Of a stretch of 64,000 nt of DNA, positions 8,500 to 59,552 are shown in pieces. The translations under genes were made by a program, and so were the position numbers. The notes beneath the pieces are model-generated. The model made no database searches. It saw only the letters and a program-made list of their open reading frames with translations, and was not told the origin of the DNA. Source of the DNA: Escherichia phage FL33; sequence record PP400788, one strand, 5' to 3'. Every line of letters begins with the position of its first letter. Position 1 is the first letter of the stretch.

Positions 8500-8525
8500 T
8501 CTCTAACGATAGAAACACAATTTTA

Positions 8526-8548
8526 GGGAACCTTCGGGTTCCCTTTTT
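8526..8548 (+). terminator. intrinsic terminator after gene 23
   Basis: gggaacc-ttcg-ggttccc hairpin with UUCG tetraloop followed by TTTTT. Confidence 0.85.
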
Positions 8549-9211
8549 CTATTTTATACGATAGCAATCAGGCATATCATCCGCATTTATCCAATTGCGA
8601 ATAGTTTTAGGACTAACTTTAAAATGCTCCGCTGCGTAATCAGGATTATCAAATTTAACGCCCTTTATACATATTGGAATAAATTTTTTAATACCACCAA
8701 GTTTTTCAGAAATAGCTTTACGATGTGAAATCGATATAGGTTTATTTTTTCGTGGATGAACATGTGTTTTATAGTATTCATTGCGCCCTTTAACTCGCTT
8801 CGCAATAGTTTCATCAGATTGCTTAACGCCTGTTTTTGCCTTTGATATTTTTCGTTTAGCTTCCACAGTCATTCCTTCTTTTGTTCGTATTGATAACATA
8901 TTACGATATGAAGGATCTTGCAAATGAACTATAACTGGATTTCCTCTGCCACCAATAGCAGCATTATAGGTATCAGTTCTCATAACGAATTCCTCATTGA
9001 CTAGTAAAGCTTCCATTTTATACATCTCCTCAGATGAGGAGAAAGAATAAAGAATTTCTTTTTTAAAGTTATGAATACCATATTTTTTGATGGATTTTTT
9101 GATGTTTACTCCAGAACCCATATAACCATCGTTTTTGTCAAGAGTAGCATGAGCTCCGATGTAAATTTTTCCATTGATGATATTAGTAATTTGATATATT
9201 AAATATTTCAT
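8549..9211 (-). CDS. segD: GIY-YIG free-standing homing endonuclease (SegD-like)
   Basis: N-terminal GIY-YIG module KYLIYQITNIINGKIYIGAH...GYMGSG; GGAG upstream of ATG at 9211 (ORF extends to 9250); lies between 23 and 24 as in T4. Confidence 0.8.
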   Translation of the reverse strand: MKYLIYQITNIINGKIYIGAHATLDKNDGYMGSGVNIKKSIKKYGIHNFKKEILYSFSSSEEMYKMEALLVNEEFVMRTDTYNAAIGGRGNPVIVHLQDPSYRNMLSIRTKEGMTVEAKRKISKAKTGVKQSDETIAKRVKGRNEYYKTHVHPRKNKPISISHRKAISEKLGGIKKFIPICIKGVKFDNPDYAAEHFKVSPKTIRNWINADDMPDCYRIK

Positions 9212-10600: not shown

Positions 10601-10621
10601 GGGACCGAAAGGTCCCTTTTT
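10601..10621. terminator. bidirectional hairpin terminator between 24 and rnlB
   Basis: gggacc-gaaa-ggtccc hairpin with GAAA tetraloop, T-runs on both sides. Confidence 0.8.
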
Positions 10622-10623
10622 AT

Positions 10624-11631
10624 TTAGCTCACCAACTCAATCCAATATGGACGAAGTACATCTTGTACCATTTTAACTAATTCCTTTTTAATCAAAGAAG
10701 GATTATCTGCTTGAGTTAGAGTAATACCTTCACGAGAAGTTTCTTCCAAAATATCTTGAACAGTTAGCCCCATCACCTTTCCAAAATCCTTTGGACCAAT
10801 TTCGCCAATTTTAGAAATAACGTTATTTACGCGGTTTAGTGTAACGTAACAAGCTAAAATTCCAACCAATTTGTTATCAGCTTCTGATAGCTCAACTTTA
10901 GCTTTAATAGGCTTATCAGACTTTTTCTTTTCACTAAATTTAGAGTTCTTGCATTTAATCGCTACACGAGCACCGTTTGGCAGCCATTTAGGGAAACAAG
11001 GCTTCAGAACATAACCTTCTGCAGTATTATCACCAATAACATTAGCATCAAATACACAATTATTTGCTTCGACAAGGTCTTCCGATGCCGTAGCGTTATA
11101 AGCGGCTAAGACGGAATCAAGGTCGTTTGGAATCATGATAAGAGCATCAAATGTTCCACGTCCAAGCATTGGTGCCATTTTAAAACCAAACGTATTACAG
11201 AAATCTTGCATTTCGTAATCACTCATGTAATAAGTATCACCGCTTTCCGTGTTTATGATGATATCGAATACATAGAAATCTTTTTCACCGTAGTCAACAC
11301 CTTTCTGAATTCCACCACCAGCGAATTCACCAAAGACTTGATATGTCACCGGCACTGAAGTTGAAATACTGTCCATGACTTCTTGAACGCCTTTAATAGC
11401 TTTATCATACTTTTTGAGTACTATTTCATAGCCATAAAAATCTTCTGCTGGAAGAATAGGGCCAGTACGTTTAGCGCAAGTTACTTTATCACGCTCAATA
11501 ATCAATGAGAAATTTGTGCCGTGAATTTTTTCACGAGCTACCCACTCCCCACCAATCAATCCCAAGCTATAAAGTTTTTCAATAAATTTAGAGTTGTAAT
11601 GATTTTCAAGACTGCTATACTTTTTAAACAT
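10624..11631 (-). CDS. rnlB: RNA ligase 2 (Rnl2)
   Basis: 335-aa ORF; N-terminus [16 protein letters not shown] and adenylyltransferase lysine context EKIHGTN as T4 Rnl2. Confidence 0.93.
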
Positions 11632-20419: not shown

Positions 20420-20897
20420 AGAAGTTTCTATTCCTAAAATGGGTCTTAAACATTATAACATTTTAAAAGATGTTAAAGGTCCTGATGAAAATTTAAAACT
20501 TTTGATCGATTCTATTTGTCCGAATTTATCACCGGCAGAAGTTGATTTCGTTTCTATTCATTTATTGGAATTTAATGGAAAGATTAAATCTCGCAAAGAA
20601 ATAGATGGTTATACTTATGACATTAATGATGTTTATGTATGCCAAAGATTGGAATTTCAATACCAAGGAAATACATTTTATTTTAGACCTCCTGGAAAAT
20701 TTGAACAATTTTTAACGGTGAGCGATATGTTATCCAAGTGCTTACTTAAGGTCAATGATGAAGTTAAAGAAATTAATTTTCTTGAGATGCCAGCATTCGT
20801 TTTAAAATGGGCAAATGACATTTTTACAACTTTAGCAATTCCTGGCCCTAATGGTCCAATAACCGGAATTGGCAATATTATTGGATTATTTGAATGA
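20364..20897 (+). CDS. 28: baseplate hub distal subunit gp28
   Basis: 177-aa ORF overlapping 3' end of gene 27 in another frame, as in T4. Confidence 0.85.
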
Positions 20898-24734: not shown

Positions 24735-24737
24735 CAA

Positions 24738-24757
24738 TGGGGACCGAAAGGTCCCCA
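24738..24757. terminator. bidirectional hairpin terminator between 54 and the alt cluster
   Basis: tggggacc-gaaa-ggtcccca hairpin flanked by A/T runs. Confidence 0.8.
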
Positions 24758-24762
24758 TATTT

Positions 24763-25053
24763 TTATTTACGGAATGAAATAAAAGCAGCAACTGAAGCAA
24801 CTAAACTGTCTTCAATATAAACTTCAATTTTTACCGGAGCTTCTGACTCAAATTTACCTGTTACTACACCTTGGAAAATGCTTTCAGTCTGTTCTGGCTT
24901 TGAAAAATTTTCAGAAGGAAAAATTCCGAACTTTTTATCTGTTCCAAAAATTTTGATAAATTCGTCGTAAACCGCTTCATTAAAAGCGTTATCAGCAGGA
25001 ATAACGCCTTCAACTACGAGTTCTTGACCTAAAAAGCGCAAAGAAGATTTCAT
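24763..25053 (-). CDS. hypothetical protein downstream of alt paralogue
   Basis: 96-aa ORF; GAGGA 8 nt upstream of ATG, supplied by the 54-bp repeat cassette. Confidence 0.6.
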   Translation of the reverse strand: MKSSLRFLGQELVVEGVIPADNAFNEAVYDEFIKIFGTDKKFGIFPSENFSKPEQTESIFQGVVTGKFESEAPVKIEVYIEDSLVASVAAFISFRK

Positions 25054-25060
25054 TTTGTGT

Positions 25061-25114
25061 TCCTCATGTTATGTCAGTAAGATTACTATAACACAACACG
25101 AGGGACTTGTAAAC
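25061..25114 (-). repeat. 54-bp exact direct repeat, copy 1 (early-promoter + RBS cassette)
   Basis: Identical to 40404-40457; minus strand reads GTTTAC-18 nt-TATAGT...GAGGA. Confidence 0.9.
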
Positions 25115-27171
25115 TACATCTTGAACTTTTTAGACATTCCGTTGATGTTAACCAAAGAAGCCAAGATTTGAGAAACTTCGTTTTCCTCTTCTTTTGATTC
25201 TTCTACAAGGAATTGATTAAATCCAGCCATTAGACGAACTTCACCAGTTTCCATTAGATGGTCGCCATCATATACCGATTCTTCTAATTGTTCAGAAGGA
25301 GGAACGATTGTGCCTTCGATTAGATACTTATTATAAGCAGTTTCTTTCATCATGTACGTACTCACTTTATTAATCTTCAGCAAAATTCCACGCGGTAAAA
25401 TAACTTCAGCTTCTGATGGAAATCCTGATAAATGTCCTGGAACGATAACTTTGATTCGCTCAGCTCCTTTAATTACCATACCCACGCTAGTTTCAGCATC
25501 TTCATTCGCATAAGCAGAGTGACTGCCCATATGCATCAAATCTTCTGCGTCAACTGAACCTTCTCCTTCACCAGAAAATACTGCGCCGGAATCATCTAGA
25601 GCCATATAGTTTTTACCATACTCACCGAAGATATTTGGTTTAAGCGATGTGGATACGAAGTTCTTGAAGTAGAACATTTTATTTTCAATATTATGACGTA
25701 AAGTTTTAAAGGTAACTTCTTGTCCACGGTAAAGCGTAGTTCCTGGAGGAAGAACTGATCCTTTGGCAAAGGCAGAATCCATTGTCTCGATGTGTTTAAT
25801 AGCTCGTTCCATATATTCTTCACGGGTAGAATCCGGTTTACCTAAAAGGAACGAGTTCATTTCAACATATGAATCTGCACAATAATCTTCAATTACATCA
25901 GACTCAGCCTGAGTTAATCCTTTTAGAGTTACTTCAGTACTTGCATATTCATACGCTTGAGAAGCAGACTCATTAATCAATTTATAAACGCCATTCATGA
26001 CAAATTGAACAATAGCTACCTTTTCATCTGGTGTGGCTTTAGAACCTTTAACTAAATCATTGACAATTTTCTTAATAACATCAAAGCTATTAGAAATATT
26101 AATGTCAGCGAGATCGCTCAAAATTTTATCGGTTTTATAATCAAAAAATTCTTTATTCTTTAAATATTCTTGAGAACCTTGATGTGTTATATCGCTCTGC
26201 AGTCTGATAGACGGATCACGTAAACGCGCGTGGGCCAATGCAATATGATTTCGGAAGTTTTCTAGTTCATAATCGTTAGATTTAAAACGAGAAGCACTTC
26301 TCATACCACCGATAGCTCCTTTGCTGAAGTTTGAACCAATCTGAATAACGCCAGAGTTCATTGGTCCTTCTGCTTTATATACCGGAACTTTAGATTCAAA
26401 CTCTTGATATTTCTTGGCAGCGAAGCTATCACCCTGAAGTGAAGCATCAACAGTAGAATATTGAGCTTGTGCTGCTAATCGACGACTAATTTTAGTTTTC
26501 TGAATAACAGCTTGATCAGTGCGCTTATCATTTTCTAAAGCAATAGAAGCAGCAACAGCGACAGCTTTAGGAACAGCATTACCTGTTTTAACGTCTACAT
26601 AAACATCACCAACCTTTGATTCAACTTTTGTGAATAACTCAGTTGAAATAGGAGGTACACCTGGAATGTCTTCTAAATTGGCATTTTTACGGTAAACCAT
26701 AATATATGCATATTTTTTATCATAGTCCCAGATTTCCTTTAAAAGAACATATCGACCTGCTCCCTTAGTACGTACTAAACGGTCAGCAATAACTTGCATT
26801 TGACGAGCTGCGCCATTTGTTTTACTCTTTAGTACGCGGAATAGGCATGCGTCGATTTTATACTGTTTCATTGTTTGAAGAGCAGTATCAAAAACAGCAT
26901 TAATGACGCCAATTGGATTTCCACCCAAGTTTCTAAGCTTAACCAGCGATAATTTCTCGTTGACACCTATCATTACGATATGCATCATTTTATCGCCCGG
27001 CTTAACGTTTTTATTTGTATCACCGCCAGAGGTGTATGTACAAAATCTAAATCCAGGAAGCACGCTTTCTTCACCGGCTTGAATAGCAAAAATTTGAGGT
27101 ATTTTATGCTTAGGATTTAAGTTAACAACCGGCGCCGAAGCGCCGTCAAATAATTCTGTAATAAGTTCCAT
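25114..27171 (-). CDS. Alt-like ADP-ribosyltransferase, paralogue 2
   Basis: 685 aa; N-terminus MELITELFD... shared with the adjacent Alt; C-terminal R/S/E motifs (YRGQ, STS, EAEVILPRG). Confidence 0.85.
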   Translation of the reverse strand: MELITELFDGASAPVVNLNPKHKIPQIFAIQAGEESVLPGFRFCTYTSGGDTNKNVKPGDKMMHIVMIGVNEKLSLVKLRNLGGNPIGVINAVFDTALQTMKQYKIDACLFRVLKSKTNGAARQMQVIADRLVRTKGAGRYVLLKEIWDYDKKYAYIMVYRKNANLEDIPGVPPISTELFTKVESKVGDVYVDVKTGNAVPKAVAVAASIALENDKRTDQAVIQKTKISRRLAAQAQYSTVDASLQGDSFAAKKYQEFESKVPVYKAEGPMNSGVIQIGSNFSKGAIGGMRSASRFKSNDYELENFRNHIALAHARLRDPSIRLQSDITHQGSQEYLKNKEFFDYKTDKILSDLADINISNSFDVIKKIVNDLVKGSKATPDEKVAIVQFVMNGVYKLINESASQAYEYASTEVTLKGLTQAESDVIEDYCADSYVEMNSFLLGKPDSTREEYMERAIKHIETMDSAFAKGSVLPPGTTLYRGQEVTFKTLRHNIENKMFYFKNFVSTSLKPNIFGEYGKNYMALDDSGAVFSGEGEGSVDAEDLMHMGSHSAYANEDAETSVGMVIKGAERIKVIVPGHLSGFPSEAEVILPRGILLKINKVSTYMMKETAYNKYLIEGTIVPPSEQLEESVYDGDHLMETGEVRLMAGFNQFLVEESKEEENEVSQILASLVNINGMSKKFKM

Positions 27172-27174
27172 GAT

Positions 27175-29271
27175 TTATCCTTGAACGAACTTGTAAGGCA
27201 TGTTTGTAATATCTATGCAAGACGCAATAATTCCAAGAGATGATTCTACTTTCTGTTTAATATTTGATGAAACAAATGATGCAAAGTCAACTCTGTCTTC
27301 TATTTCAATATCACCTGTCATTGCAACTACTTCGCCGGTTTCCATTAAATGGTCTCCGTCATAGATTACCGATTCAGTGAGTTCTTCTGTGGTCATAACT
27401 TCAGCTTGAATGAGTTTTGTATTATTAGACGTGGTTCCGTCATTATTAGAAGCATCAGTTATTTTATTAACTTTAACCATCAATCCGCGCGGTAGAATAA
27501 CTTCAGCTTCTGTTGCTATTCCGAGACTTCCTGGATATACAACATTAACTTTATGAGCTCCATCAATTGCCCATCCTATTTGAACTTTAACGTATTCAGG
27601 ATTTTCTTTATACGCTCTTATTTCGTTTGGATTAATAGTTATTCCTTCTTCATTTTTATCAACCGTTAATTCGTTACGAGCTTCTGGTTCTAAAAGACCA
27701 ATACCAGCATGTGTAATTCCAAAACGCCCAAAAATGATAGGAGTTAAAGAAGTAGATACAAAATTTCTGAAATAGAACACTTTATTTTTAACTAGCGCTT
27801 CGTATATAGGAGCAGTCATACTTTGAGCACGATAAACTGTAATGCCTTCCGGTATGCGGTCACCATTTTCAAAAGCTGAATCTAAATTATTTATAGCAGA
27901 TTCAATTTCTTTTTCACTCATTACATCATATCGTTCTGGATTGTAACGACCTAAAAGAAGATTATTGATGTCAGTATATCCTGAACCACAATACTCTCTA
28001 ATGCCGCGCTTTTGTGATGGAGTATATTTAGAACCATCACGGGCAATAGTAATATCAATCATTGGACCTGCACCAATTCCAGAAAAACTATAAATCATTC
28101 TTTTGAGGAATTTAGTTTTTGCTGCGTTCCAGGAATTTTTAGTCATTTCTTCCCAGACTTCATCTGGCTGCCCTTTACGAGTTTTATTATGTTTATCAAG
28201 CCAATTATCTTTATATTCTTCAAAGAGTTGATTAACAGCTGCTGCGTATTTCTCTAAACATTTTATTGAAGTAGTTGGTTCATTTTTAATCGCATTAAGA
28301 ATTACATCTTTAATTTTTTCAGAAACTTCATTAACCTCACTTTTTGAAAAGAATTTATAGTCATAATGAAGTTCATTCGCAGTTCCTTCGGCAATAATTT
28401 TTGCTGCCTTAGTTTTAGAAGCTAATGAATTAATTCCAAGCTTCATTTCTTCTGCTTCGGGAATTAAAGGAGCGGTAGCAGGTTTATTGAAATTAGCTGC
28501 GGTAGATTCATACTTCTGGAATAATTCACTTTCAAATCTAGAAGATTCCAATGACTGACTTTGTGCAATTGCTCTACGGGAAATTTTAACTTTAACGATT
28601 ACAGCTTGGTCAGAACGTTTATCATTTTCTTGTGCAATAGATGCTGCAATTGCCTCATTTTTAGTTACTTGAGCTCCAGTATCTTTATTGATATAAACAT
28701 CACCGACCTTCGATTCAACTTTAGTAAAGAGCTCGGTACTAATTTCCGGAACCCCTGGAATGTCTTCTAGTGATACATTTTTGCGATGTATAAGAATATA
28801 TGCATACTTTTTATCATAATCCCAGAGTTCCTTAAGAAGGACGTATCTGCCACCTGAACGACTACGGATAAGTCTATCAGCAATAACTTGAATTTGTCTA
28901 GCTTGACCAGCAGTTTTAGACTTAAGAATACGGAGCATACAAGCATCAATTTTATACTGACGCATTGTTTGCATTGCAACAGTAAAAACCGAATTGATAT
29001 AATTAATTGGGCTTGGACCAAGACCTTTCAATTTAGCAATTGAACCTTTAGCAGTTAATGTAAAAGGAACAATATGCATCATTTTATCGCCCATCTTTAA
29101 ATCACGGTTAGTATCACCTCCAGATGTATAGGTACATAAACGAAAGCCTGGTTGCTCAATTGCGTCATCAACATGAACTGAAAAAATTTGCGGTATTTTC
29201 TTCTTTGGATTTAAGTTTGTAATCGGAAGAGTAGTATCTTCGTCAAATAATTCTGTAATAAGTTCCATCAT
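27175..29271 (-). CDS. alt: Alt ADP-ribosyltransferase (virion-packaged)
   Basis: 698 aa; MMELITELFDEDTTLPITNL...; motifs YRAQ, STS, EAEVILPRG; late promoter upstream; start may be the second Met (29268). Confidence 0.88.
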   Translation of the reverse strand: MMELITELFDEDTTLPITNLNPKKKIPQIFSVHVDDAIEQPGFRLCTYTSGGDTNRDLKMGDKMMHIVPFTLTAKGSIAKLKGLGPSPINYINSVFTVAMQTMRQYKIDACMLRILKSKTAGQARQIQVIADRLIRSRSGGRYVLLKELWDYDKKYAYILIHRKNVSLEDIPGVPEISTELFTKVESKVGDVYINKDTGAQVTKNEAIAASIAQENDKRSDQAVIVKVKISRRAIAQSQSLESSRFESELFQKYESTAANFNKPATAPLIPEAEEMKLGINSLASKTKAAKIIAEGTANELHYDYKFFSKSEVNEVSEKIKDVILNAIKNEPTTSIKCLEKYAAAVNQLFEEYKDNWLDKHNKTRKGQPDEVWEEMTKNSWNAAKTKFLKRMIYSFSGIGAGPMIDITIARDGSKYTPSQKRGIREYCGSGYTDINNLLLGRYNPERYDVMSEKEIESAINNLDSAFENGDRIPEGITVYRAQSMTAPIYEALVKNKVFYFRNFVSTSLTPIIFGRFGITHAGIGLLEPEARNELTVDKNEEGITINPNEIRAYKENPEYVKVQIGWAIDGAHKVNVVYPGSLGIATEAEVILPRGLMVKVNKITDASNNDGTTSNNTKLIQAEVMTTEELTESVIYDGDHLMETGEVVAMTGDIEIEDRVDFASFVSSNIKQKVESSLGIIASCIDITNMPYKFVQG

Positions 29272-33683: not shown

Positions 33684-33686
33684 CAA

Positions 33687-34046: not shown

Positions 34047-34076
34047 ATACTATCACAAAGGAACTATACTGTAAAC
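34047..34076 (-). promoter_or_regulatory. T4-type early promoter
   Basis: Minus strand GTTTAC-18 nt-TAGTAT, then AAGGAGAATAA ATG at 34019. Confidence 0.6.
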
Positions 34077-37106: not shown

Positions 37107-37136
37107 ATAATATCACAACTCTACCATAAAGTAAAC
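37107..37136 (-). promoter_or_regulatory. T4-type early promoter
   Basis: Minus strand GTTTAC-18 nt-TATTAT upstream of ORF starting at 37076. Confidence 0.55.
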
Positions 37137-39552: not shown

Positions 39553-39902
39553 TTAGAAAGGTCCTGGATGTCTTCTGCGAACTTGTTGAAGGAGTTGTTG
39601 ATTTGTTTTTCAACCAATCCTGGCTTATGAGCCACCACATCCGCCTTCTTTGCGTCTTTGCGCAGTTTTTCATTTTCACGCTCAATAGCAGCAATTGCCT
39701 CACGATTTTTAGTATTCATCGCATCAATATAATTATACTGAATTCGCAAATTATTTAATGCTAAGGCGTTTTCATTGGCCGTTTTTGTAATTTCAGTAAC
39801 TGATGTTTCTAATCTTTCTACCTTATTTTTTAAAATAATAGATGTTCCGCCAAATGCTATTACAAGTAATAGCAATCCAGCTGTAAAATTACTTACATGC
39901 AT
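39549..39902 (-). CDS. inner-membrane spanin (N-terminal TMD + coiled coil)
   Basis: 117 aa; hydrophobic N-terminus GLLLLVIAFGG then charged coiled-coil. Confidence 0.55.
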   Translation of the reverse strand: MHVSNFTAGLLLLVIAFGGTSIILKNKVERLETSVTEITKTANENALALNNLRIQYNYIDAMNTKNREAIAAIERENEKLRKDAKKADVVAHKPGLVEKQINNSFNKFAEDIQDLSK

Positions 39903-40396
39903 AAAGTTTTAATAACCTCTACAATATCGTCTTGAGAAAGACCGTTAATTAAAATATGATGTTCAGCTGGAGATTTAGAAATTTTAAAGCATGCCTCAAC
40001 ATCTTCTGCCATATCCGATGCACTACGATTTGGATTACTAATTCCAAGACGATGTTTTCCCGTCAAAGGATTAACGATGATATAGCATTTACAACTATTG
40101 ATATGAACATTAGGTTGTGTCTGATTAATGAACACTTCACAATCATACTTAGCGAGTTGATTTTCTAAAAAGACTTTCATCTCCTCAACTGCATCAGGAA
40201 GCATATCACGGGCTTGCTCAAGACGACGATTTCGATATTCTTTAATGGTCGTTTTCCGCTTGACTTGTTTAGCTAAATCTTTCTTAAGATCAGTGATATA
40301 TCCAACTCGACGATTTCCTTTGAATACAGAAATCCCATCTGTAGTATCACCGTATGCTTCAACGACCATTTCAGTAGTAATAAGCTGCAAATCCAT
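39893..40396 (-). CDS. alc: Alc, inhibitor of host transcription
   Basis: 167 aa from second Met (ORF extends to 40399); T4 Alc position; RBS from the repeat cassette. Confidence 0.85.
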   Translation of the reverse strand: MDLQLITTEMVVEAYGDTTDGISVFKGNRRVGYITDLKKDLAKQVKRKTTIKEYRNRRLEQARDMLPDAVEEMKVFLENQLAKYDCEVFINQTQPNVHINSCKCYIIVNPLTGKHRLGISNPNRSASDMAEDVEACFKISKSPAEHHILINGLSQDDIVEVIKTLCM

Positions 40397-40403
40397 CATA
40401 AAG

Positions 40404-40457
40404 TCCTCATGTTATGTCAGTAAGATTACTATAACACAACACGAGGGACTTGTAAAC
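40404..40457 (-). repeat. 54-bp exact direct repeat, copy 2 (early-promoter + RBS cassette)
   Basis: Identical to 25061-25114; between rnlA stop and alc start. Confidence 0.9.
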
Positions 40458-40460
40458 AGC

Positions 40461-42048
<1,588 letters not shown>

Positions 42049-42075: not shown

Positions 42076-43245
42076 TTAAAAGTATTTTTTAAAACTCATC
42101 ATAACTTTATCATCAACATCATTATCAATCTGTGCAACAAGGTAAGATGACAGTTCTACTTCTTGTGGCGCGGATTGAACATTATCAGAATTAAGATATT
42201 CACGAATCCAAGGATATGGATGTTTAACCGGAGCATCGGTAATTGGGCATGGAAGACCACACTGTTTCATACGAGATACAGTTAAGTAATCAATAAAGCT
42301 CCACATGCTATTTGTATTTAATCCAGGAACATCACCATCTTTAAATAAATGAACTGCCCAATCTTTTTCTTGGCGGTTAACTTCCATGAAAATATCAACT
42401 GCTTCTTGTTCACACTCTTGAGCAATTTTAACCCATTCATCGCCATCAGTGCCAAGTTGAAGTTGACGAATAATATATTGGGTGCCTTTAAGGTGAAGCT
42501 GCTCATCACGAGCAATGAACTTCATAATCTTGGCATTACCTTCCATGATTTCCATGTTTTTGTGGAAGTTAAATGTACACGCGAAAGATACGTAAAAACG
42601 AATAGCTTCCAGGGCGTTGATTACATGAAGGCAAAGATAAAGAGATTTCATTAGTGCTCGTTTAGTACATTCAACAACTTTGCCTAACTCTTCTTTACGA
42701 AATCCTTCTGATAAAATTCCTTCATAATCTTCAACCGCATTCTGATATTCACGAGTCTTAACTAGAACATCATCGTAATAGCGACCAATGGACTCGGCAC
42801 GTTTCATAATAGCTTTATCTAATACAATCTCATCAAATACCTTTGACGGATCAGTATAAAGATTTCGCATAATATGAGTGTATGAACGACTGTGAATAGT
42901 TTCACTAAAAGTCCATGTAGCAACCCATGTATCAAGACTTGGGTCTGAAATTAACGACATAAGTACAGCAGACGGCGCACGACCCTGAATGCTATCCAAA
43001 AGTGATTGATACTTCAAGTTATTAGTAAAAATATCTTGCTGATATTGAGGAAGCTTGTTAAATTGTGCAGCATCCATCATCAAGTTTACTTCTTCAGGAC
43101 GCCAGAAAAATGACAACTGCTTTTCGGTTAAATCTTCAAAAACTTTATGACGTTGAATATCATAACGCGCAATACCAAGACCTGAACCGAAGAACATAGG
43201 TTCTTTTAAAACATCAACTGGATTTGTATTAAAAACTGTGCTCAT
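42076..43245 (-). CDS. nrdB: ribonucleotide reductase small subunit NrdB (uninterrupted)
   Basis: 389-aa continuous ORF with class Ia R2 features; no intron. Confidence 0.95.
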   Translation of the reverse strand: MSTVFNTNPVDVLKEPMFFGSGLGIARYDIQRHKVFEDLTEKQLSFFWRPEEVNLMMDAAQFNKLPQYQQDIFTNNLKYQSLLDSIQGRAPSAVLMSLISDPSLDTWVATWTFSETIHSRSYTHIMRNLYTDPSKVFDEIVLDKAIMKRAESIGRYYDDVLVKTREYQNAVEDYEGILSEGFRKEELGKVVECTKRALMKSLYLCLHVINALEAIRFYVSFACTFNFHKNMEIMEGNAKIMKFIARDEQLHLKGTQYIIRQLQLGTDGDEWVKIAQECEQEAVDIFMEVNRQEKDWAVHLFKDGDVPGLNTNSMWSFIDYLTVSRMKQCGLPCPITDAPVKHPYPWIREYLNSDNVQSAPQEVELSSYLVAQIDNDVDDKVMMSFKKYF

Positions 43246-50423: not shown

Positions 50424-50453
50424 ATAGTATCACACTACTACCCTACTGTAAAC
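50424..50453 (-). promoter_or_regulatory. T4-type early promoter
   Basis: Minus strand GTTTAC-18 nt-TACTAT then AAGGAGAATAAA ATG at 50398. Confidence 0.55.
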
Positions 50454-53505: not shown

Positions 53506-54423
53506 TCAAAATTCATTAATGCTATTAGTTAATTTAGAAAGACCCGCTTTTACAAAATATGAATAAATTTTGCCACGCGGTGGTAATTTATATGAATTAT
53601 AGTAATTCACAATGTTTGAAGCAATATTATCAGGAATATAATCAAAATCAATTAGAACTAAATTTTCTTTATAACGATTATATTCAGATTCTGTAAGAAG
53701 CACCTTAGCTTGCTCACGGTCATTAGCAATAGCTTCAACTATTGAAGTTTTCATTGAAGGAGTTCGTTCACCTTCAACTTTGGTAAACCAAAAGTCAGAT
53801 CGTACTTTAACTGAAGCAACGTTATCCTTTTTGTCGCCTTTAAGGATTTTAGTCATACAATCAATTTCAGCAGAACCGCTTTTAATTTTAACCCATTTCT
53901 TATGCATCGGCGACCATTGCTTAACATTTGGGTATTTGTGAAGCTGTGTAAAGTCACCATCCGATGAAATGATTAAAATCTTATGTCCTTCTAAAGAGAA
54001 CTTTTTAACAAGAACAGCAATATGGTCATCTGCTTCATACTTATCAATATCCATAACAATGTATGGCATATAAGCTTTCAATTCATCTATAACTTTATGG
54101 CTGGATTCAAAATAACCTTCCCAGTCCCAAGTAGATTCTTCTCGTGCTTTTCCACGGTTTTTCTTATAGTAATAAGCAAAATCACGACGCCAGTATCCAG
54201 ATTTCGCGTTATCGATACACAGTACAATTTTAGTGTATCCAAACGTTTTTGCTTTTTTGACATTAAACTTAATTGAGTTCAATATCAAATGACGAACCAT
54301 TGATAAATTAATTTTTTCTTTATCTGGGAAGTTTACTAAAGCAGTTGAAAGCGCAATTTGACTAAAGTCAATAAAGCAAATTCCTTCTTTGTAATCTTCA
54401 TCCAACATCATTTCTAAATCCAT
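53506..54423 (-). CDS. rnh: RNase H (5'-3' exonuclease / flap endonuclease)
   Basis: 305 aa from MDLEMMLDEDYKEG (ORF extends 5 codons upstream); FEN-family acidic motifs. Confidence 0.93.
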   Translation of the reverse strand: MDLEMMLDEDYKEGICFIDFSQIALSTALVNFPDKEKINLSMVRHLILNSIKFNVKKAKTFGYTKIVLCIDNAKSGYWRRDFAYYYKKNRGKAREESTWDWEGYFESSHKVIDELKAYMPYIVMDIDKYEADDHIAVLVKKFSLEGHKILIISSDGDFTQLHKYPNVKQWSPMHKKWVKIKSGSAEIDCMTKILKGDKKDNVASVKVRSDFWFTKVEGERTPSMKTSIVEAIANDREQAKVLLTESEYNRYKENLVLIDFDYIPDNIASNIVNYYNSYKLPPRGKIYSYFVKAGLSKLTNSINEF

Positions 54424-54527: not shown

Positions 54528-57500
54528 ATGGCCGAGATTAAAAGAAAGTTCAGAGCAGAAGATGGTCTGGACGCAGGTGGTGATAAAATAATCAACGTAG
54601 CTTTAGCTGATCGTACCGTAGGAACTGACGGTGTTAACGTTGATTACTTAATTCAAGAAAACACAGTTCAACAATATGATCCAACTCGTGGATATTTAAA
54701 AGATTTTGTAATCATTTATGATAACCGCTTTTGGGCTGCTATAAATGATATTCCAAAACCAGCAGGAGCTTTTAATAGCGTACGATGGAGAGCGTTACGT
54801 ACTGATGCAAACTGGACAACTGTTTCATCAGGACCTTATCAATTAAAGTCAGGTGAATCAATTTCAGTTGATACTGCAGCTGGTAATGACATTACATTTA
54901 CTTTACCATCTTCTCCAATTGATGGTGATACTATCGTTCTCCAAGACATTGGAGGAAAACCTGGAGTTAACCAAGTTTTAATTACAGCTCCGGTACAAAG
55001 CATTGTAAATTTTAGAGGTCAGCAAGTACGATCAGTACTAATGACTCATCCAAAATCACAGATAGTTTTAATTTTTAGTAATCGTCTGTGGCAAATGTAT
55101 GTCGCTGATTATAGTAGAGAAGCTGTAGTTGTAACGCCTGCGAGTCTCTATCAGGCGCAATCAAACGATTTTATCGTACGTAGATTTACTTCTGCTGCAC
55201 CAATTAATGTTAAACTTCCAAGATTTGCTAATCATGGCGATATTATTAATTTCGTCGATTTAGATAAACTGAATCCACTTTATCATACAATTGTTACTAC
55301 ATACGATGAAACGACTTCAGTACAAGAAGTTGGAACTCATTCCATTGAAGGCCGTACATCGATTGACGGTTTCTTGATGTTTGATGATAATGAGAAATTG
55401 TGGAGATTGTTTGACGGGGATAGTAAAGCACGTTTACGCATTATAACGACTAATTCTAATATTCGTCCAAACGAAGAAGTTATGGTATTTGGTGCGAATA
55501 ACGGAACAACTCAAACAATTGAGCTTCAGCTTCCAACTAATATTTCTGTTGGTGATACTGTTAAAATTTCCATGAATTACATGAGAAAAGGACAAACAGT
55601 TAAAATCAAAGCTGCTGGTGAAGATAAAATTGCTTCTTCAGTTCAATTGCTGCAATTCCCAAAACGTTCAGAATATCCGCCTGAAACTAAATGGGTTACA
55701 GTTCAAGAATTAGTTTTTAATGGTGAAACTAATTATGTTCCAGTTTTGCAACTTGCTTATATAGAAGATTCTGATGGAAAATATTGGGTTGTGCAACAAA
55801 ATGTTCCAACTGTAGAAAGAGTTGATTCTTTAAATGATTCTACTAGAGCAAGATTAGGCGTAATTGCTTTAGCTACACAAGCTCAAGCTAACGTCGATTT
55901 AGAAAATTCTCCACAAAAAGAATTAGCAATTACTCCAGAAACATTAGCTAACCGTACTGCTACTGAAACTCGCAGAGGTATTGCAAGAATAGCAACTACT
56001 GCTCAAGTGAATCAGAACACCACATTCTCTTTTGCTGATGATATTATCATCACTCCTAAAAAGCTGAATGAAAGAACTGCTACAGAAACTCGCAGAGGTG
56101 TCGCAGAAATTGCTACGCAGCAAGAAACTAATGCAGGTACTGATGATACAACCATCATTACTCCTAAAAAGCTTCAAGCTCGTCAAGGTTCTGAATCATT
56201 ATCTGGTATTGTAACTTTTGTATCTACTGCAGGTGCTACTCCAGCTTCTAGCCGTGAATTAAATGGTACGAATGTTTATAATAAAAACACTAATAACTTA
56301 GTTGTTTCGCCAAAAGCTTTGGATCAGTATAAAGCTACTCCAACGCAACAAGGTGCAGTAATTTTAGCAGTTGAAAGTGAAGTAATTGCTGGACAAAGCC
56401 AAGAAGGATGGGCAAATGCGGTTGTAACGCCAGAAACGTTACATAAAAAGACATCAACTGATGGAAGAATTGGTTTAATTGAAATTGCTACGCAAAGTGA
56501 AGTTAATACAGGAACTGATTATACTCGTGCAGTCACTCCTAAAACTTTAAATGACCGTAGAGCAACTGAAAGTTTAAGTGGTATAGCTGAAATTGCTACA
56601 CAAGTTGAATTCGACGCAGGCGTCGACGATACTCGTATCTCTACACCATTAAAAATTAAAACCAGATTTAATAGTACTGATCGTACTTCTGTTGTTGCTC
56701 TATCTGGATTAGTTGAATCAGGAACTCTCTGGGACCATTATACCCTTAATATTCTTGAAGCAAATGAGACACAGCGTGGTACACTTCGTGTAGCTACACA
56801 GGTTGAAGCTGCTGCAGGAACATTAGATAATGTTTTAATAACTCCTAAAAAGCTTTTAGGTACTAAATCTACCGAATCGCAAGAAGGTGTTATTAAAGTT
56901 GCAACTCAGTCTGAAACTGTGACTGGAACGTCAGCAAATACTGCTGTATCTCCAAAAAATTTAAAATGGATTGTGCAGAGTGAACCTACTTGGGCAGCTA
57001 CTACTGCAATAAGAGGTTTTGTTAAAACTTCATCTGGTTCAATTACATTCGTTGGTAATGATACAGTAGGTTCTACCCAAGATTTAGATCTATACGAGAA
57101 AAATAGCTATGCGGTATCACCATATGAATTAAACCGCGTATTAGCAAATTATCTGCCGTTAAAAGCAAAAGCTGTAGATAGTAATTTATTGGATGGTCTA
57201 GATTCATCTCAGTTCATTCGTAGGGATATTGCACAGACGGTTAATGGTTCACTAACCTTAACCCAACAAACGAATCTGAGTGCCCCTCTTGTATCATCTA
57301 GTACTGCTACGTTTGGTGGTTCAGTTTCGGCAAATAGTGTACTAACTATTTCTAATACTGGAACAGCAACTCGTCTGATTTTTGAAAAAGGACCTCAGAC
57401 TGGAACGAACCCGGCTCAAACGATGACAGTCAGCGTGTGGGGGAATCAATTTAGTGGGGAATCAAACACAACACGTTCTACCGTATTTGAAGTTAGTGAT

Positions 57501-58405: not shown

Positions 58406-59521
58406 ATGGAAAAATTTATGGCAGAGTTTGGACAAGGATATGTCCAAACGCCATTTTTATCGGAAAGCAATTCAGTAAGATATAAAATAAGTATAGCGGG
58501 TTCTTGCCCGCTTTCTACCGCAGGACCATACGTTAAATTTCAAGATAATCCTGTAGGAAGTCAAACATTTAGTGCAGGTCTTCATTTAAGAGTTTTTGAC
58601 CCTTCCACGGGAGCATTGGTTGATAGTAAGTCATATGTTTTTTCTACTTCAAATGATACAACATCTGCTGCTTTTGTTAGTTTCATGAATTCTTTTTCAA
58701 GCAATAGACTTGTTGCCATATTAACTAGCGGAAAGGTTAATTTTCCTCCTGAAGTAGTATCTTGGTTAAGAACGGCAGGAACATCTGCTTTTCCATCTGA
58801 TTCTTTATTGTCAAGATTTGACGTATCATATGCTGCCTTTTACACTTCTTCTAAAAGAGCTATCGCACTAGAGCATGTTAAACTGAGTAACAGAAAAAGC
58901 ACAGATGACTATCAAACTATATTAGATGTAGTATTTGATAGTTTAGAAGATGTTGGAGCGACAGGATTTCCTAAAAGAACATATGAAAGCGTTGAGCAAT
59001 TTATGTCAGCTGTTGGTGGAACTAATAACGAAATTGCACGTCTACCTACAGCATCTGCAATAAGTAAACTCTCTGATTATAATTTAATTCCTGGAGATGT
59101 TCTTTATCTTAAAGCACAACTATATGCTGATGCTGATTTACTTGCTCTTGGAACTACAAATATATCTATCCGTTTTTATAATGCGTCGAATGGATATATT
59201 TCCTCGACACAAGCTGAGTTTACAGGACAGGCTGGATCTTGGGAATTAAAAGAAGATTATGTAGTTGTTCCTGAAAATGCAGTAGGATTTACGATATACG
59301 CACAGAGAACTGCACAAGCGGGTCAAGGCGGTATGAGAAATTTAAGCTTTTCTGAAGTGTCAAGAAATGGCGGCATTTCAAAACCTGCTGAGTTTGGCGT
59401 CAATGGTATTCGAGTTAATTATATCTGTGAATCTGCTTCACCTCCGGATATAATGGTACTTCCTACGCAAGCATCGTCTAAAACTGGTAAAGTGTTTGGA
59501 CAGGAATTTAGAGAAGTTTAA
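58406..59521 (+). CDS. 35: long tail fibre hinge protein gp35
   Basis: 371-aa ORF directly after 34. Confidence 0.9.
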   Translation: MEKFMAEFGQGYVQTPFLSESNSVRYKISIAGSCPLSTAGPYVKFQDNPVGSQTFSAGLHLRVFDPSTGALVDSKSYVFSTSNDTTSAAFVSFMNSFSSNRLVAILTSGKVNFPPEVVSWLRTAGTSAFPSDSLLSRFDVSYAAFYTSSKRAIALEHVKLSNRKSTDDYQTILDVVFDSLEDVGATGFPKRTYESVEQFMSAVGGTNNEIARLPTASAISKLSDYNLIPGDVLYLKAQLYADADLLALGTTNISIRFYNASNGYISSTQAEFTGQAGSWELKEDYVVVPENAVGFTIYAQRTAQAGQGGMRNLSFSEVSRNGGISKPAEFGVNGIRVNYICESASPPDIMVLPTQASSKTGKVFGQEFREV

Positions 59522-59526
59522 ATTGA

Positions 59527-59549
59527 GGGAGCCTTCGGGTTCCCTTTTT
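59527..59549 (+). terminator. hairpin terminator after gene 35
   Basis: gggagcc-ttcg-ggttccc UUCG hairpin + TTTTT, closely related to the gene 23 terminator. Confidence 0.75.
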
Positions 59550-59552
59550 CTT

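Follow-up and report, generated by a model that had tools for sequence, protein, structure and literature searches.

Several bacteriophage T4 genes (e, soc, 49 and I-TevI) have their Shine-Dalgarno sequence hidden in a helix when transcripts arrive from upstream, whereas RNA started at an internal promoter, situated in the DNA for the 5′ strand or the loop, lacks the 5′ arm of that helix (PMC3014915); for the lysozyme gene e, the effect on translation is approximately 100-fold (PMC3014915). Another described system, PeSL, is a composite of an early promoter and a stem-loop that ends in a Shine-Dalgarno sequence and ATG, with the T4/PST consensus TTTACW-N17-TAYWAT (PMC4122927; PMC2839356). T4 early promoters themselves have G-TTTACA, a 17-nt spacer, TGn, a TAnnnT −10 element and an A-rich upstream region (PMC2988021), and accessible reviews mention "additional regions of consensus" in them (PMC2988021). 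Here we analyse a 54-bp cassette that occurs twice in a stretch of 64,000 nucleotides from Escherichia phage FL33 (record PP400788; the whole stretch is called the window below), once in front of alc, which encodes an inhibitor of host transcription, and once in front of alt.-3. We propose, with somewhat better than even confidence, that the cassette is best explained as an early promoter embedded in a hairpin that covers the ribosome-binding site, anciently duplicated and homogenised by gene conversion.

Results

The 54-mer TCCTCATGTTATGTCAGTAAGATTACTATAACACAACACGAGGGACTTGTAAAC was found by pattern search at two places in the window, with no mismatch between them (Table 1). A k-mer scan returned it as the longest exact repeat on either strand, with no extension to 55 nt; the runner-up is a repeat of 24–29 nt (27144/29241) at the starts of two alt paralogues. 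No third copy was found by pattern search of the window at up to three mismatches, and no matches are expected in shuffles. All genes relevant to the cassettes lie on the minus strand, where the 54-mer reads GTTTACAAGTCCCTCGTGTTGTGTTATAGTAATCTTACTGACATAACATGAGGA; its positions are numbered 1–54 from the first G in this reading. At copy 1 this first G overlaps by one base the TAG stop codon of the upstream Alt paralogue, and the alt.-3 ATG (25053) lies 7 nt past GAGGA. At copy 2 the rnlA stop codon TAA (40461–40463) is 3 nt upstream of the cassette, and the alc ATG (40399) lies 4 nt past GAGGA, with a second ATG at 40396. These results agree with a first-pass annotation of the sequence, which had reported an identical 54-bp repeat at two loci about 15 kb apart, each copy placed directly after the stop codon of one gene (the Alt paralogue; rnlA) and before the start of the next. 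A terminator scan found no terminator-like site between the upstream genes and either cassette.

Both copies contain G-TTTACA, a 17-nt spacer (18 nt if counted from GTTTAC), TGT-TATAGT as an extended −10 element (with T22 and G23), a leader and GAGGA, and 10 of the 12 hexamer positions match the consensus. Both are of the T4 early type and lie between one stop codon and the next start, in line with the initial description of an early-promoter/ribosome-binding-site cassette with GTTTAC, an 18-nt spacer, TATAGT, a leader and GAGGA on the minus strand. The −10 region is TATAGTAA accompanied by a −35 element, that is, of early type. A middle or a late promoter could be ruled out, as neither a MotA box nor the late sequence TATAAATA is present. 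From the usual spacing between −10 and +1, transcription is predicted to start at A37, seven bases past TATAGT. The A/T-rich UP element of T4-type early promoters is expected at approximately −40 to −60. An upstream A-tract, AAAAA, lies at approximately −49 to −53 at copy 1, and further out, at approximately −61 to −66, at copy 2; both tracts are outside the repeat, within coding sequence, and differ between the copies.

The most informative feature of the cassette is probably an inverted repeat that the first-pass annotation had overlooked. Positions 12–26 (CCTCGTGTTGTGTTA), within the promoter spacer, are complementary to positions 39–53 (TGACATAACATGAGG), within the leader and including GAGG of the Shine-Dalgarno sequence, giving a stem of 14–15 bp with three G-U pairs and with the −10 box in the loop region. 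Both copies are predicted to fold stably as sense-strand RNA (Table 1), whereas the antisense fold reaches z scores of only −1.9 and −1.2, because the three G-U pairs become A-C mismatches. Across 14 Tequatrovirus variants, 98% of the cells are paired.

The predicted start A37 lies 2 nt ahead of the 3′ arm, between the two arms; therefore RNA that reads through from upstream would contain both arms, and promoter-started RNA the 3′ arm only. The predicted consequences for the ribosome-binding site are large. At alc, the probability that GAGG is unpaired is approximately 0 in read-through RNA and approximately 0.8 in promoter-started RNA. To open the region between 4 nt ahead of the Shine-Dalgarno sequence and 10 nt past AUG, a predicted 21.2 kcal/mol is needed in read-through versus 5.7 kcal/mol in promoter-started RNA at alt.-3, and 23.7 versus 5.7 kcal/mol at alc. 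The same calculation for T4 gene e gives 15.6 kcal/mol for read-through and 1.2–4.2 kcal/mol for promoter-started RNA. We infer that a ribosome at the upstream stop codon would extend into the stem by only one to three pairs, so translational coupling should not open it.

Other roles for the hairpin were also considered. An intrinsic terminator could be ruled out, as no U-run (T-run in the DNA) is present, the hairpin being followed by ACACAAAAUG or CUUUAUGAUG, and the scanner called none at either cassette. A target of RegB was likewise ruled out, since the Shine-Dalgarno sequence is GAGGA and not GGAG. Rfam gave no family at the gathering score in the whole window, and at the alc cassette only a chance match to a miRNA (E = 0.91).

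Taken together, the cassette could work as follows. Each copy, a T4-type early promoter placed directly past the upstream stop codon and joined to its 17-nt leader and Shine-Dalgarno sequence, would be recognised by host sigma-70 RNA polymerase. Read-through RNA from rnlA or from the Alt paralogue would fold into the 14–15 bp hairpin, burying GAGG and leaving the −10 box in the loop; RNA from the cassette's own promoter, starting between the arms, would be devoid of the 5′ arm and would keep the ribosome site open. alc and alt.-3 would then be translated mainly from their own early-promoter transcripts, and synthesis of Alc and Alt.-3 would be confined to the first minutes of infection, whatever later transcription passes through the genes.

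T4 expression data bear on this scheme. Published time-resolved RNA and protein data for T4 place alc and alt.-3 in the early class at both levels (PMC9697503, supplementary files 4 and 6), whereas alt.-1 and alt.-2 belong to the middle class as RNA, and rnlA is early as RNA but late as protein (PMC9697503). Because the classes of alc and alt.-3 differ from those of the genes upstream, the expression class changes exactly at the cassettes. Such a change agrees with an active early promoter at these sites, and does not conflict with a dependence of translation on early transcripts.

Table 1. Positions of the cassette elements and neighbouring genes in the window, and the corresponding predicted hairpins in other phage groups
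Feature	Position	Strand	Details
Cassette copy 1 (alt.-3 locus)	25061–25114	−	Exact match; promoter-like site TTTACA/17/TATAGT with TG
Cassette copy 2 (alc locus)	40404–40457	−	Exact match; promoter-like site
−35 TTTACA, copy 1	25108–25113	−	G at 25114 is the last base of the upstream TAG
−35 TTTACA, copy 2	40451–40456	−	Preceding G at 40457
Extended −10, copy 1	25085–25093	−	TG 25093–25092, one base, TATAGT 25090–25085; in hairpin loop region
Extended −10, copy 2	40428–40436	−	TG 40436–40435, one base, TATAGT 40433–40428
Predicted transcription start, copy 1	25078	−	A37, between the arms; position inferred
Predicted transcription start, copy 2	40421	−	A37; position inferred
Hairpin 5′ arm, copy 1	25089–25103	−	CCUCGUGUUGUGUUA, in promoter spacer; predicted fold −26.5 kcal/mol, z −4.7
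Hairpin 3′ arm, copy 1	25062–25076	−	UGACAUAACAUGAGG; includes GAGG of Shine-Dalgarno (GAGGA 25065–25061)
Hairpin 5′ arm, copy 2	40432–40446	−	Predicted fold −27.4 kcal/mol, z −3.8
Hairpin 3′ arm, copy 2	40405–40419	−	With Shine-Dalgarno (GAGGA 40408–40404)
Alt paralogue, 685 aa	25114–27171	−	Upstream of copy 1, putative read-through RNA source; open-reading-frame context
alt.-3, 96 aa	24763–25053	−	Served by copy 1; annotation in T4 and PP01; DUF5498 in some records
rnlA (RNA ligase 1)	40461–41585	−	Upstream of copy 2, putative read-through RNA source; open-reading-frame context
alc (inhibitor of host transcription)	39893–40399	−	Served by copy 2; open-reading-frame context
Terminator-like hairpin, bidirectional	24737–24758	.	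Closes the alt.-3 unit, between alt.-3 and gene 54; terminator scan
Karamvirus alc hairpin			CTCCATTTGGTTGTGT with ACACTAACCAAATGGAG; covers Shine-Dalgarno; z −7.1
Moonvirus alc hairpin			Arms as in Karamvirus; covers Shine-Dalgarno; z −6.6
Dhakavirus alc hairpin			TCTCCTCAT with ATGAGGAGA; covers Shine-Dalgarno; z −3.7
Marfavirus alc hairpin			CCTTG with CGAGG; covers Shine-Dalgarno; z −3.6
Klebsiella phage Roth34 alc hairpin			TCCTCAT with ATGAGGA; covers Shine-Dalgarno; z −2.3
Kanagawavirus PEi26 alc hairpin			Brackets −10, ends 6 nt short of Shine-Dalgarno; z −4.1
Mosigvirus AV118 alc hairpin			Small hairpin within spacer only; z −0.5
Kosakonia phage 305 alt.-3 pairing	342–415 of extracted stretch		Spacer with start codon and first codons

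We analysed the distribution of the cassette among phages. The window belongs to a Tequatrovirus (T4-like phage): the 1.2 kb around copy 1 match Escherichia phage FL34 at 100% identity, and hundreds of T4 relatives at 97–99%. When the 54-mer was compared by blastn with 50,697 phage records, 499 of them matched, all T4-like, with 997 places, that is, two per genome. The identity of the best place was at least 99% in 77 of these records, 95–99% in 408 and 90–95% in 14. A pattern scan of IMG/VR gave 9 loci only. T4 has both copies, with A32G in both and, in addition, G40A in the alt.-3 copy; of its Alt paralogue only the remnants alt.-1 and alt.-2 are left, the cassette follows alt.-2, and the deletion that removed most of the paralogue ends approximately 25 nt upstream of copy 1. 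Since two copies are present in all 499 records, T4 included, the duplication is as old as the genus. Recent copying, as initially proposed, therefore does not hold for the duplication, although the perfect identity of the copies is indeed recent in the lineage of the window. The alc-locus copy with its 8-nt flanks is identical to that of the window in 36 of the 499 records, which include AR1, wV7, slur phages, Sf23 and Sf25.

Variation between the copies was followed in 14 genomes in which both could be read. The two copies of a genome differ by 0–4 bases (mean 2.0), and most genomes have non-identical copies. In these genomes no site separates the two loci consistently, and five polymorphisms (C12A, G16A, T27C, A32G and T33A) occur at both loci in different phages. 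Copies from the same genome are closer to each other than are random alc/alt.-3 pairings (permutation p = 0.004). Nucleotide diversity of the cassette is 0.030 at alc and 0.058 at alt.-3, compared with 0.02–0.04 in the coding flanks. As the diversity is like that of the flanks, the likeness of the copies does not come from unusual conservation, and exchange between the loci is needed. On sequence grounds, the shared polymorphisms and the absence of a fixed difference among the genomes compared indicate an old duplication kept similar by gene conversion, a possibility that the first-pass annotation had also raised and to which the likeness of copies within genomes lends further weight.

The allele A32, carried by the window, is commoner at alt.-3 (4 of 14 genomes) than at alc (1 of 15). 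Perfect identity is a minority state specific to the lineage, for which conversion from alt.-3 to alc is the simplest account. Were the copies to undergo a reciprocal crossover, 15.3 kb with DNA ligase, gene 31, cd and pseT would be lost, so only conversions or duplications can survive.

We compared the alc and alt.-3 promoters with those of other phage groups. In seven other groups the gap between rnlA and alc is 58–63 bp, and the order is alike: stop codon, (G)TTTACA, 16–17 nt, TAnnAT, leader, Shine-Dalgarno sequence and ATG. Predicted pairing between the spacer and the Shine-Dalgarno sequence recurs at alc in five of them, with different arm sequences (Table 1), and the register of the helix relative to the promoter differs between genera. 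We conclude from this comparison that the masking hairpin is likely to be ancestral at alc. In most of the records that it matches, the Karamvirus-type alc cassette occurs once (79 places in 73 records).

A different picture emerges at alt.-3, where the promoters of five further genera were compared. None is of the alc type, and in four of the five a small hairpin lies within the spacer. In Kosakonia phage 305, the alt.-3 spacer CGAATGAACGTG is predicted to pair with the start codon and first codons ATGCGTTCATTC (−25.6 kcal/mol, z −5.4), which, if the model is right, is a different route to the same masking. In the Tequatrovirus ancestor, an alc-type hairpin probably overwrote a different alt.-3 promoter between the shared GTTTACA and CATGAGGA. 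Ectopic gene conversion has probably kept the copies alike since then, and a further conversion in the lineage of the window, most likely from alt.-3 to alc, would have produced their identity.

Spacers with a small internal hairpin form a second class, with AAGGA or TGGA as the loop. This class includes CCACAAGGATGTGG in T4 (2458, 50973), ACACCAAGGAAGGTGT at alc of Mosigvirus (444–506 of the extracted stretch), and similar spacers at alt.-3 of Dhakavirus, Mosigvirus, Marfavirus and Karamvirus. In these spacers the sequence, beyond the structure, looks conserved.

Pairing between spacer and leader was also examined across early promoters. A rule requiring [GA]TT[TG]ACN, 16–18 nt and TAnnnT, then a Shine-Dalgarno sequence, a start codon and an open reading frame of at least 30 aa, was applied to the minus strand of T4 (1–78 kb) and of the window, and gave 34 unique predicted promoters. 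The duplex between a spacer and its own 36 nt past the −10 box has a mean predicted energy of −11.4 kcal/mol, versus −7.4 kcal/mol for non-cognate pairs. Thirteen of the 34 cognate pairs fall below the 5th percentile of the non-cognate ones (1.7 expected), and 9 fall below the 1st; spacer and leader are mutual best matches in 10 of 34. For the excess of cognate over non-cognate pairing, the permutation p is < 1e-5. Four shifted controls, which paired the leader with the region upstream of −35, the spacer with the following 36 nt, and a far-upstream stretch with either the spacer or the region upstream of −35, were all null (p 0.44–0.90). In approximately 40% of the predicted T4-type early promoters, the −10 box is thus bracketed by a similar inverted repeat.

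Among the 13 strong cases, the sense duplex is more stable than the antisense one in 11 (mean difference 4.4 kcal/mol, p = 0.002), and when cases are instead taken by the same cut-off on antisense energy, sense is still more stable in 9 of 11. As far as predicted energies can tell, this sense-strand bias points to RNA. The strong cases include the promoters of dmd, dexA, motB, ipI, ipII, denV and regB in T4, and those at 37136 and 33684 in the window; the Shine-Dalgarno sequence is covered in a subset, namely at alc, alt.-3, regB, denV, dexA and T4 positions 53943 and 58780. The excess of pairing was replicated in Karamvirus (12 promoters, p = 0.0005), where the three strongest cases all cover GGAG.

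The alc/alt.-3 pair is thus the extreme case of a pattern and no singularity. That T4-like phages generally encode, in the spacer of an early promoter, the complement of its own leader, and often of its own Shine-Dalgarno sequence, is a tentative extension which we hold with clearly less confidence than the proposal for the two cassettes. If true, each such gene would "know" whether its RNA originates from its own promoter or from upstream, and translation or RNA fate would differ accordingly.

The repeats bracketing −10 boxes are located in the window (minus strand) at promoters with the −35 G at 50453, 37136, 34076 and 33684, and in T4 at 20612, 8218, 7215, 73939, 65799, 65413, 62797, 57990 and 53943. 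The arms are GGTAGAG/CTCTACC at 37136, GGTACAGG/CCTGTACC at 33684, and TCCTTTG/CAAAGGA, covering the Shine-Dalgarno sequence, at 34076.

Near-identical families of promoter and leader exist elsewhere, at 27080, 70696, 55384, 53943, 20612 and 57990 in T4 and at approximately 51182 in the window. One T4 family shares ...CCATGGTACTATACAACTATCAACTAC..., and another shares AG(C/T)TGACAAGA(C/T)TATGGTATAGTA(G/A)TCTTGTC. The initial view that other early promoters share only the two boxes thus holds inside the window but not genome-wide in T4. As judged from the sequences, the existence of such families suggests that copying or conversion of cassettes may be common.

Other features of the window

Two full-length Alt-like ADP-ribosyltransferase genes lie in tandem on the minus strand (25114–27171, 685 aa; 27175–29271, 698 aa); their DNA is approximately 71–78% identical over long stretches, with the exact repeat of 24–29 nt at their starts. 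nrdB (42076–43245, minus strand) is a single uninterrupted open reading frame of 389 aa; Rfam found no group I intron in the whole window, and the nrdB intron of T4 is apparently absent here. Three families of imperfect direct repeats (44–68 nt, 66–80% identity, spacings of 108–681 nt) occupy 55929–56854 (plus strand) and resemble repeated peptide motifs within a structural (fibre-like) gene. Terminator-like hairpins make up another class of repeated regulatory element, with near-identical members far apart: GGGAACCTTCGGGTTCCCTTTTT at 8519–8550 and 59520–59551 (51 kb apart, 91% identity, with a 20-nt exact core), and GGGACCGAAAGGTCCC at 10601–10626 and 24740–24765.

Discussion

The above results describe an early promoter whose spacer and leader are complementary, at two loci of the same genome. 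Several observations weigh against reading this arrangement as a translational gate that has been homogenised by conversion. The Shine-Dalgarno sequence of alc is unmasked in two of eight groups (Mosigvirus and Kanagawavirus PEi26), and more than half of the other repeats bracketing −10 boxes miss the Shine-Dalgarno sequence, so that masking may not be their general purpose and their general role may be in RNA fate. Covariation within Tequatrovirus is weak, with one compensatory pair (15–50) that was equalled by 57 of 500 shuffles, and three variants (C12A, G29A and G40T) break pairs. In promoter-started alt.-3 RNA the Shine-Dalgarno sequence is predicted to be still weakly paired with coding sequence, yet it is cheap to open. 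We found no mapping of 5′ ends for either cassette in the accessible literature. As to conversion, the divergence between paralogous copies (mean 2.0 differences) is of the same order as that between orthologous ones (1.6–3.2), and the case for exchange comes from the shared polymorphisms and a permutation test over 14 genomes, a small sample.

Of the rival explanations, the one that survives best is that the cassette is a mobile element of the PeSL type, providing portable homology for recombination or modular shuffling, with the hairpin acting as a terminator or an insulator. The cassette indeed combines an early promoter with a downstream Shine-Dalgarno sequence and ATG, it fits the T4/PST consensus, and sequence appears to have been exchanged between its two copies, as judged by shared polymorphisms and likeness within genomes (p = 0.004). 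The other near-identical promoter/leader families of T4, and the end point of the T4 Alt-paralogue deletion close to copy 1, would also suit such an element. However, there is no room upstream for a stem-loop, since the stop codon abuts −35; the stem instead brackets −10 and has no T-run. The test for cognate stems upstream of −35 was null. The junctions are syntenic and stable in all the other groups examined (seven for rnlA–alc and five for alt–alt.-3), which speaks against hyperplastic regions, the T4 deletion next to copy 1 notwithstanding, and a crossover between the copies would remove 15.3 kb including DNA ligase and gene 31. We therefore regard a PeSL-type element as unlikely.

It is also possible that the hairpin acts on the fate of RNA, as a processing or stability element or as a pause site in long early transcripts; for example, it might be a barrier to exonuclease, or shield the GGAG/GAGG region from RegB or RNase E. 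RNA structure is known to protect sites from RegB (PMC3014915), and the approximately 40% of predicted early promoters that are bracketed mostly have their 3′ arm at +1 to +14, short of the Shine-Dalgarno sequence. At alc, however, pairing of the Shine-Dalgarno sequence is itself conserved in six of eight groups, the three strongest Karamvirus cases all cover GGAG, and GAGGA of the cassette differs from the RegB motif GGAG. As a substitute for masking, a role in RNA fate is quite unlikely in our judgement, but the two roles are not mutually exclusive.

A plain promoter/ribosome-binding-site cassette that was copied recently would owe its identity to youth, and its inverted repeat would have no function. 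The exact identity of the copies in the window is as expected from such an event, as is the fact that the cassette is no better conserved than its coding flanks (nucleotide diversity 0.03–0.06 versus 0.02–0.04). This explanation is nevertheless very unlikely, as all 499 related records, T4 included, have two copies that are mostly non-identical within genomes, the pairing between spacer and Shine-Dalgarno sequence recurs at alc of five other groups with different arm sequences, and the sense-strand G-U bias is unexpected for a functionless repeat. A role at the level of DNA, in which the palindrome forms a cruciform or binds a protein and thereby modulates promoter activity (for instance, early shut-off, the mechanism of which is described as not understood; PMC3014915), would account for a repeat centred on the −10 box but is highly improbable, as the arms differ between promoters and offer no common protein site, and the G-U pairs would be A-C mismatches on the other strand, with sense favoured in 11 of 13 cases (p = 0.002).

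If the proposed gate of a nested promoter and masking hairpin works, it would show how T4-like phages restrict proteins like Alc, the host transcription shut-off factor, to the first minutes of infection, despite continued transcription of their genes within longer messages. It would also bear on the distinction between immediate-early and delayed-early expression. Since the promoter spacer doubles as the 5′ arm, one set of bases has to serve both the promoter and the RNA structure, which could explain extra conserved positions of T4 early promoters. In addition, the alc/alt.-3 pair is a clear case in nature of ectopic gene conversion acting on two regulatory cassettes that lie 15 kb apart. 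In annotation and phage engineering, a promoter of this kind that is moved without its leader, or that is read through, would be expected to change expression predictably. The significance would grow should the genome-wide pattern turn out to be functional and not described before. We found no description of an inverted repeat around the −10 box in the accessible reviews; the older T4 literature was outside this search, and a prior description is possible.

In comparison with known systems, the cassette has the −35, TGn and −10 elements of other T4 early promoters, with A-rich sequence upstream at copy 1, and is distinguished from them by an identity between copies that spans the entire spacer and leader, and by a spacer that holds the anti-Shine-Dalgarno sequence CCTC. 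With PeSL (Arbiol et al. 2010; Comeau et al. 2014) it shares a repeated composite early promoter and homologous recombination between copies. The PeSL stem-loop, however, is an upstream terminator with an AT-rich region between stem and promoter, whereas the stem of the cassette spans the promoter, pairing the spacer with the leader.

The closest likeness is to the class of T4 gene e, which has the same layout. As in that class, the Shine-Dalgarno sequence is predicted to be paired in a stable helix of upstream transcripts, and transcripts from the promoter, given its inferred start site, would lack the 5′ strand of that helix; the predicted energy difference of the cassette (approximately 15–18 kcal/mol) is at least that of gene e (11–14 kcal/mol). 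The differences concern the promoter and the outcome. The internal promoters of e, soc, 49 and I-TevI are late (TATAAATA), whereas that of the cassette is an early sigma-70 promoter (TTTACA/TGn/TATAGT). Furthermore, in the cassette the promoter spacer itself serves as the 5′ arm, two loci carry a copy, and the gate is a predicted one. Where the e class delays translation, the gate of the cassette would restrict it to early times, as a mirror image of the lysozyme case. By analogy, the hairpin of the cassette would thus follow the known logic of the e class, but would use an early promoter where that class has a late one.

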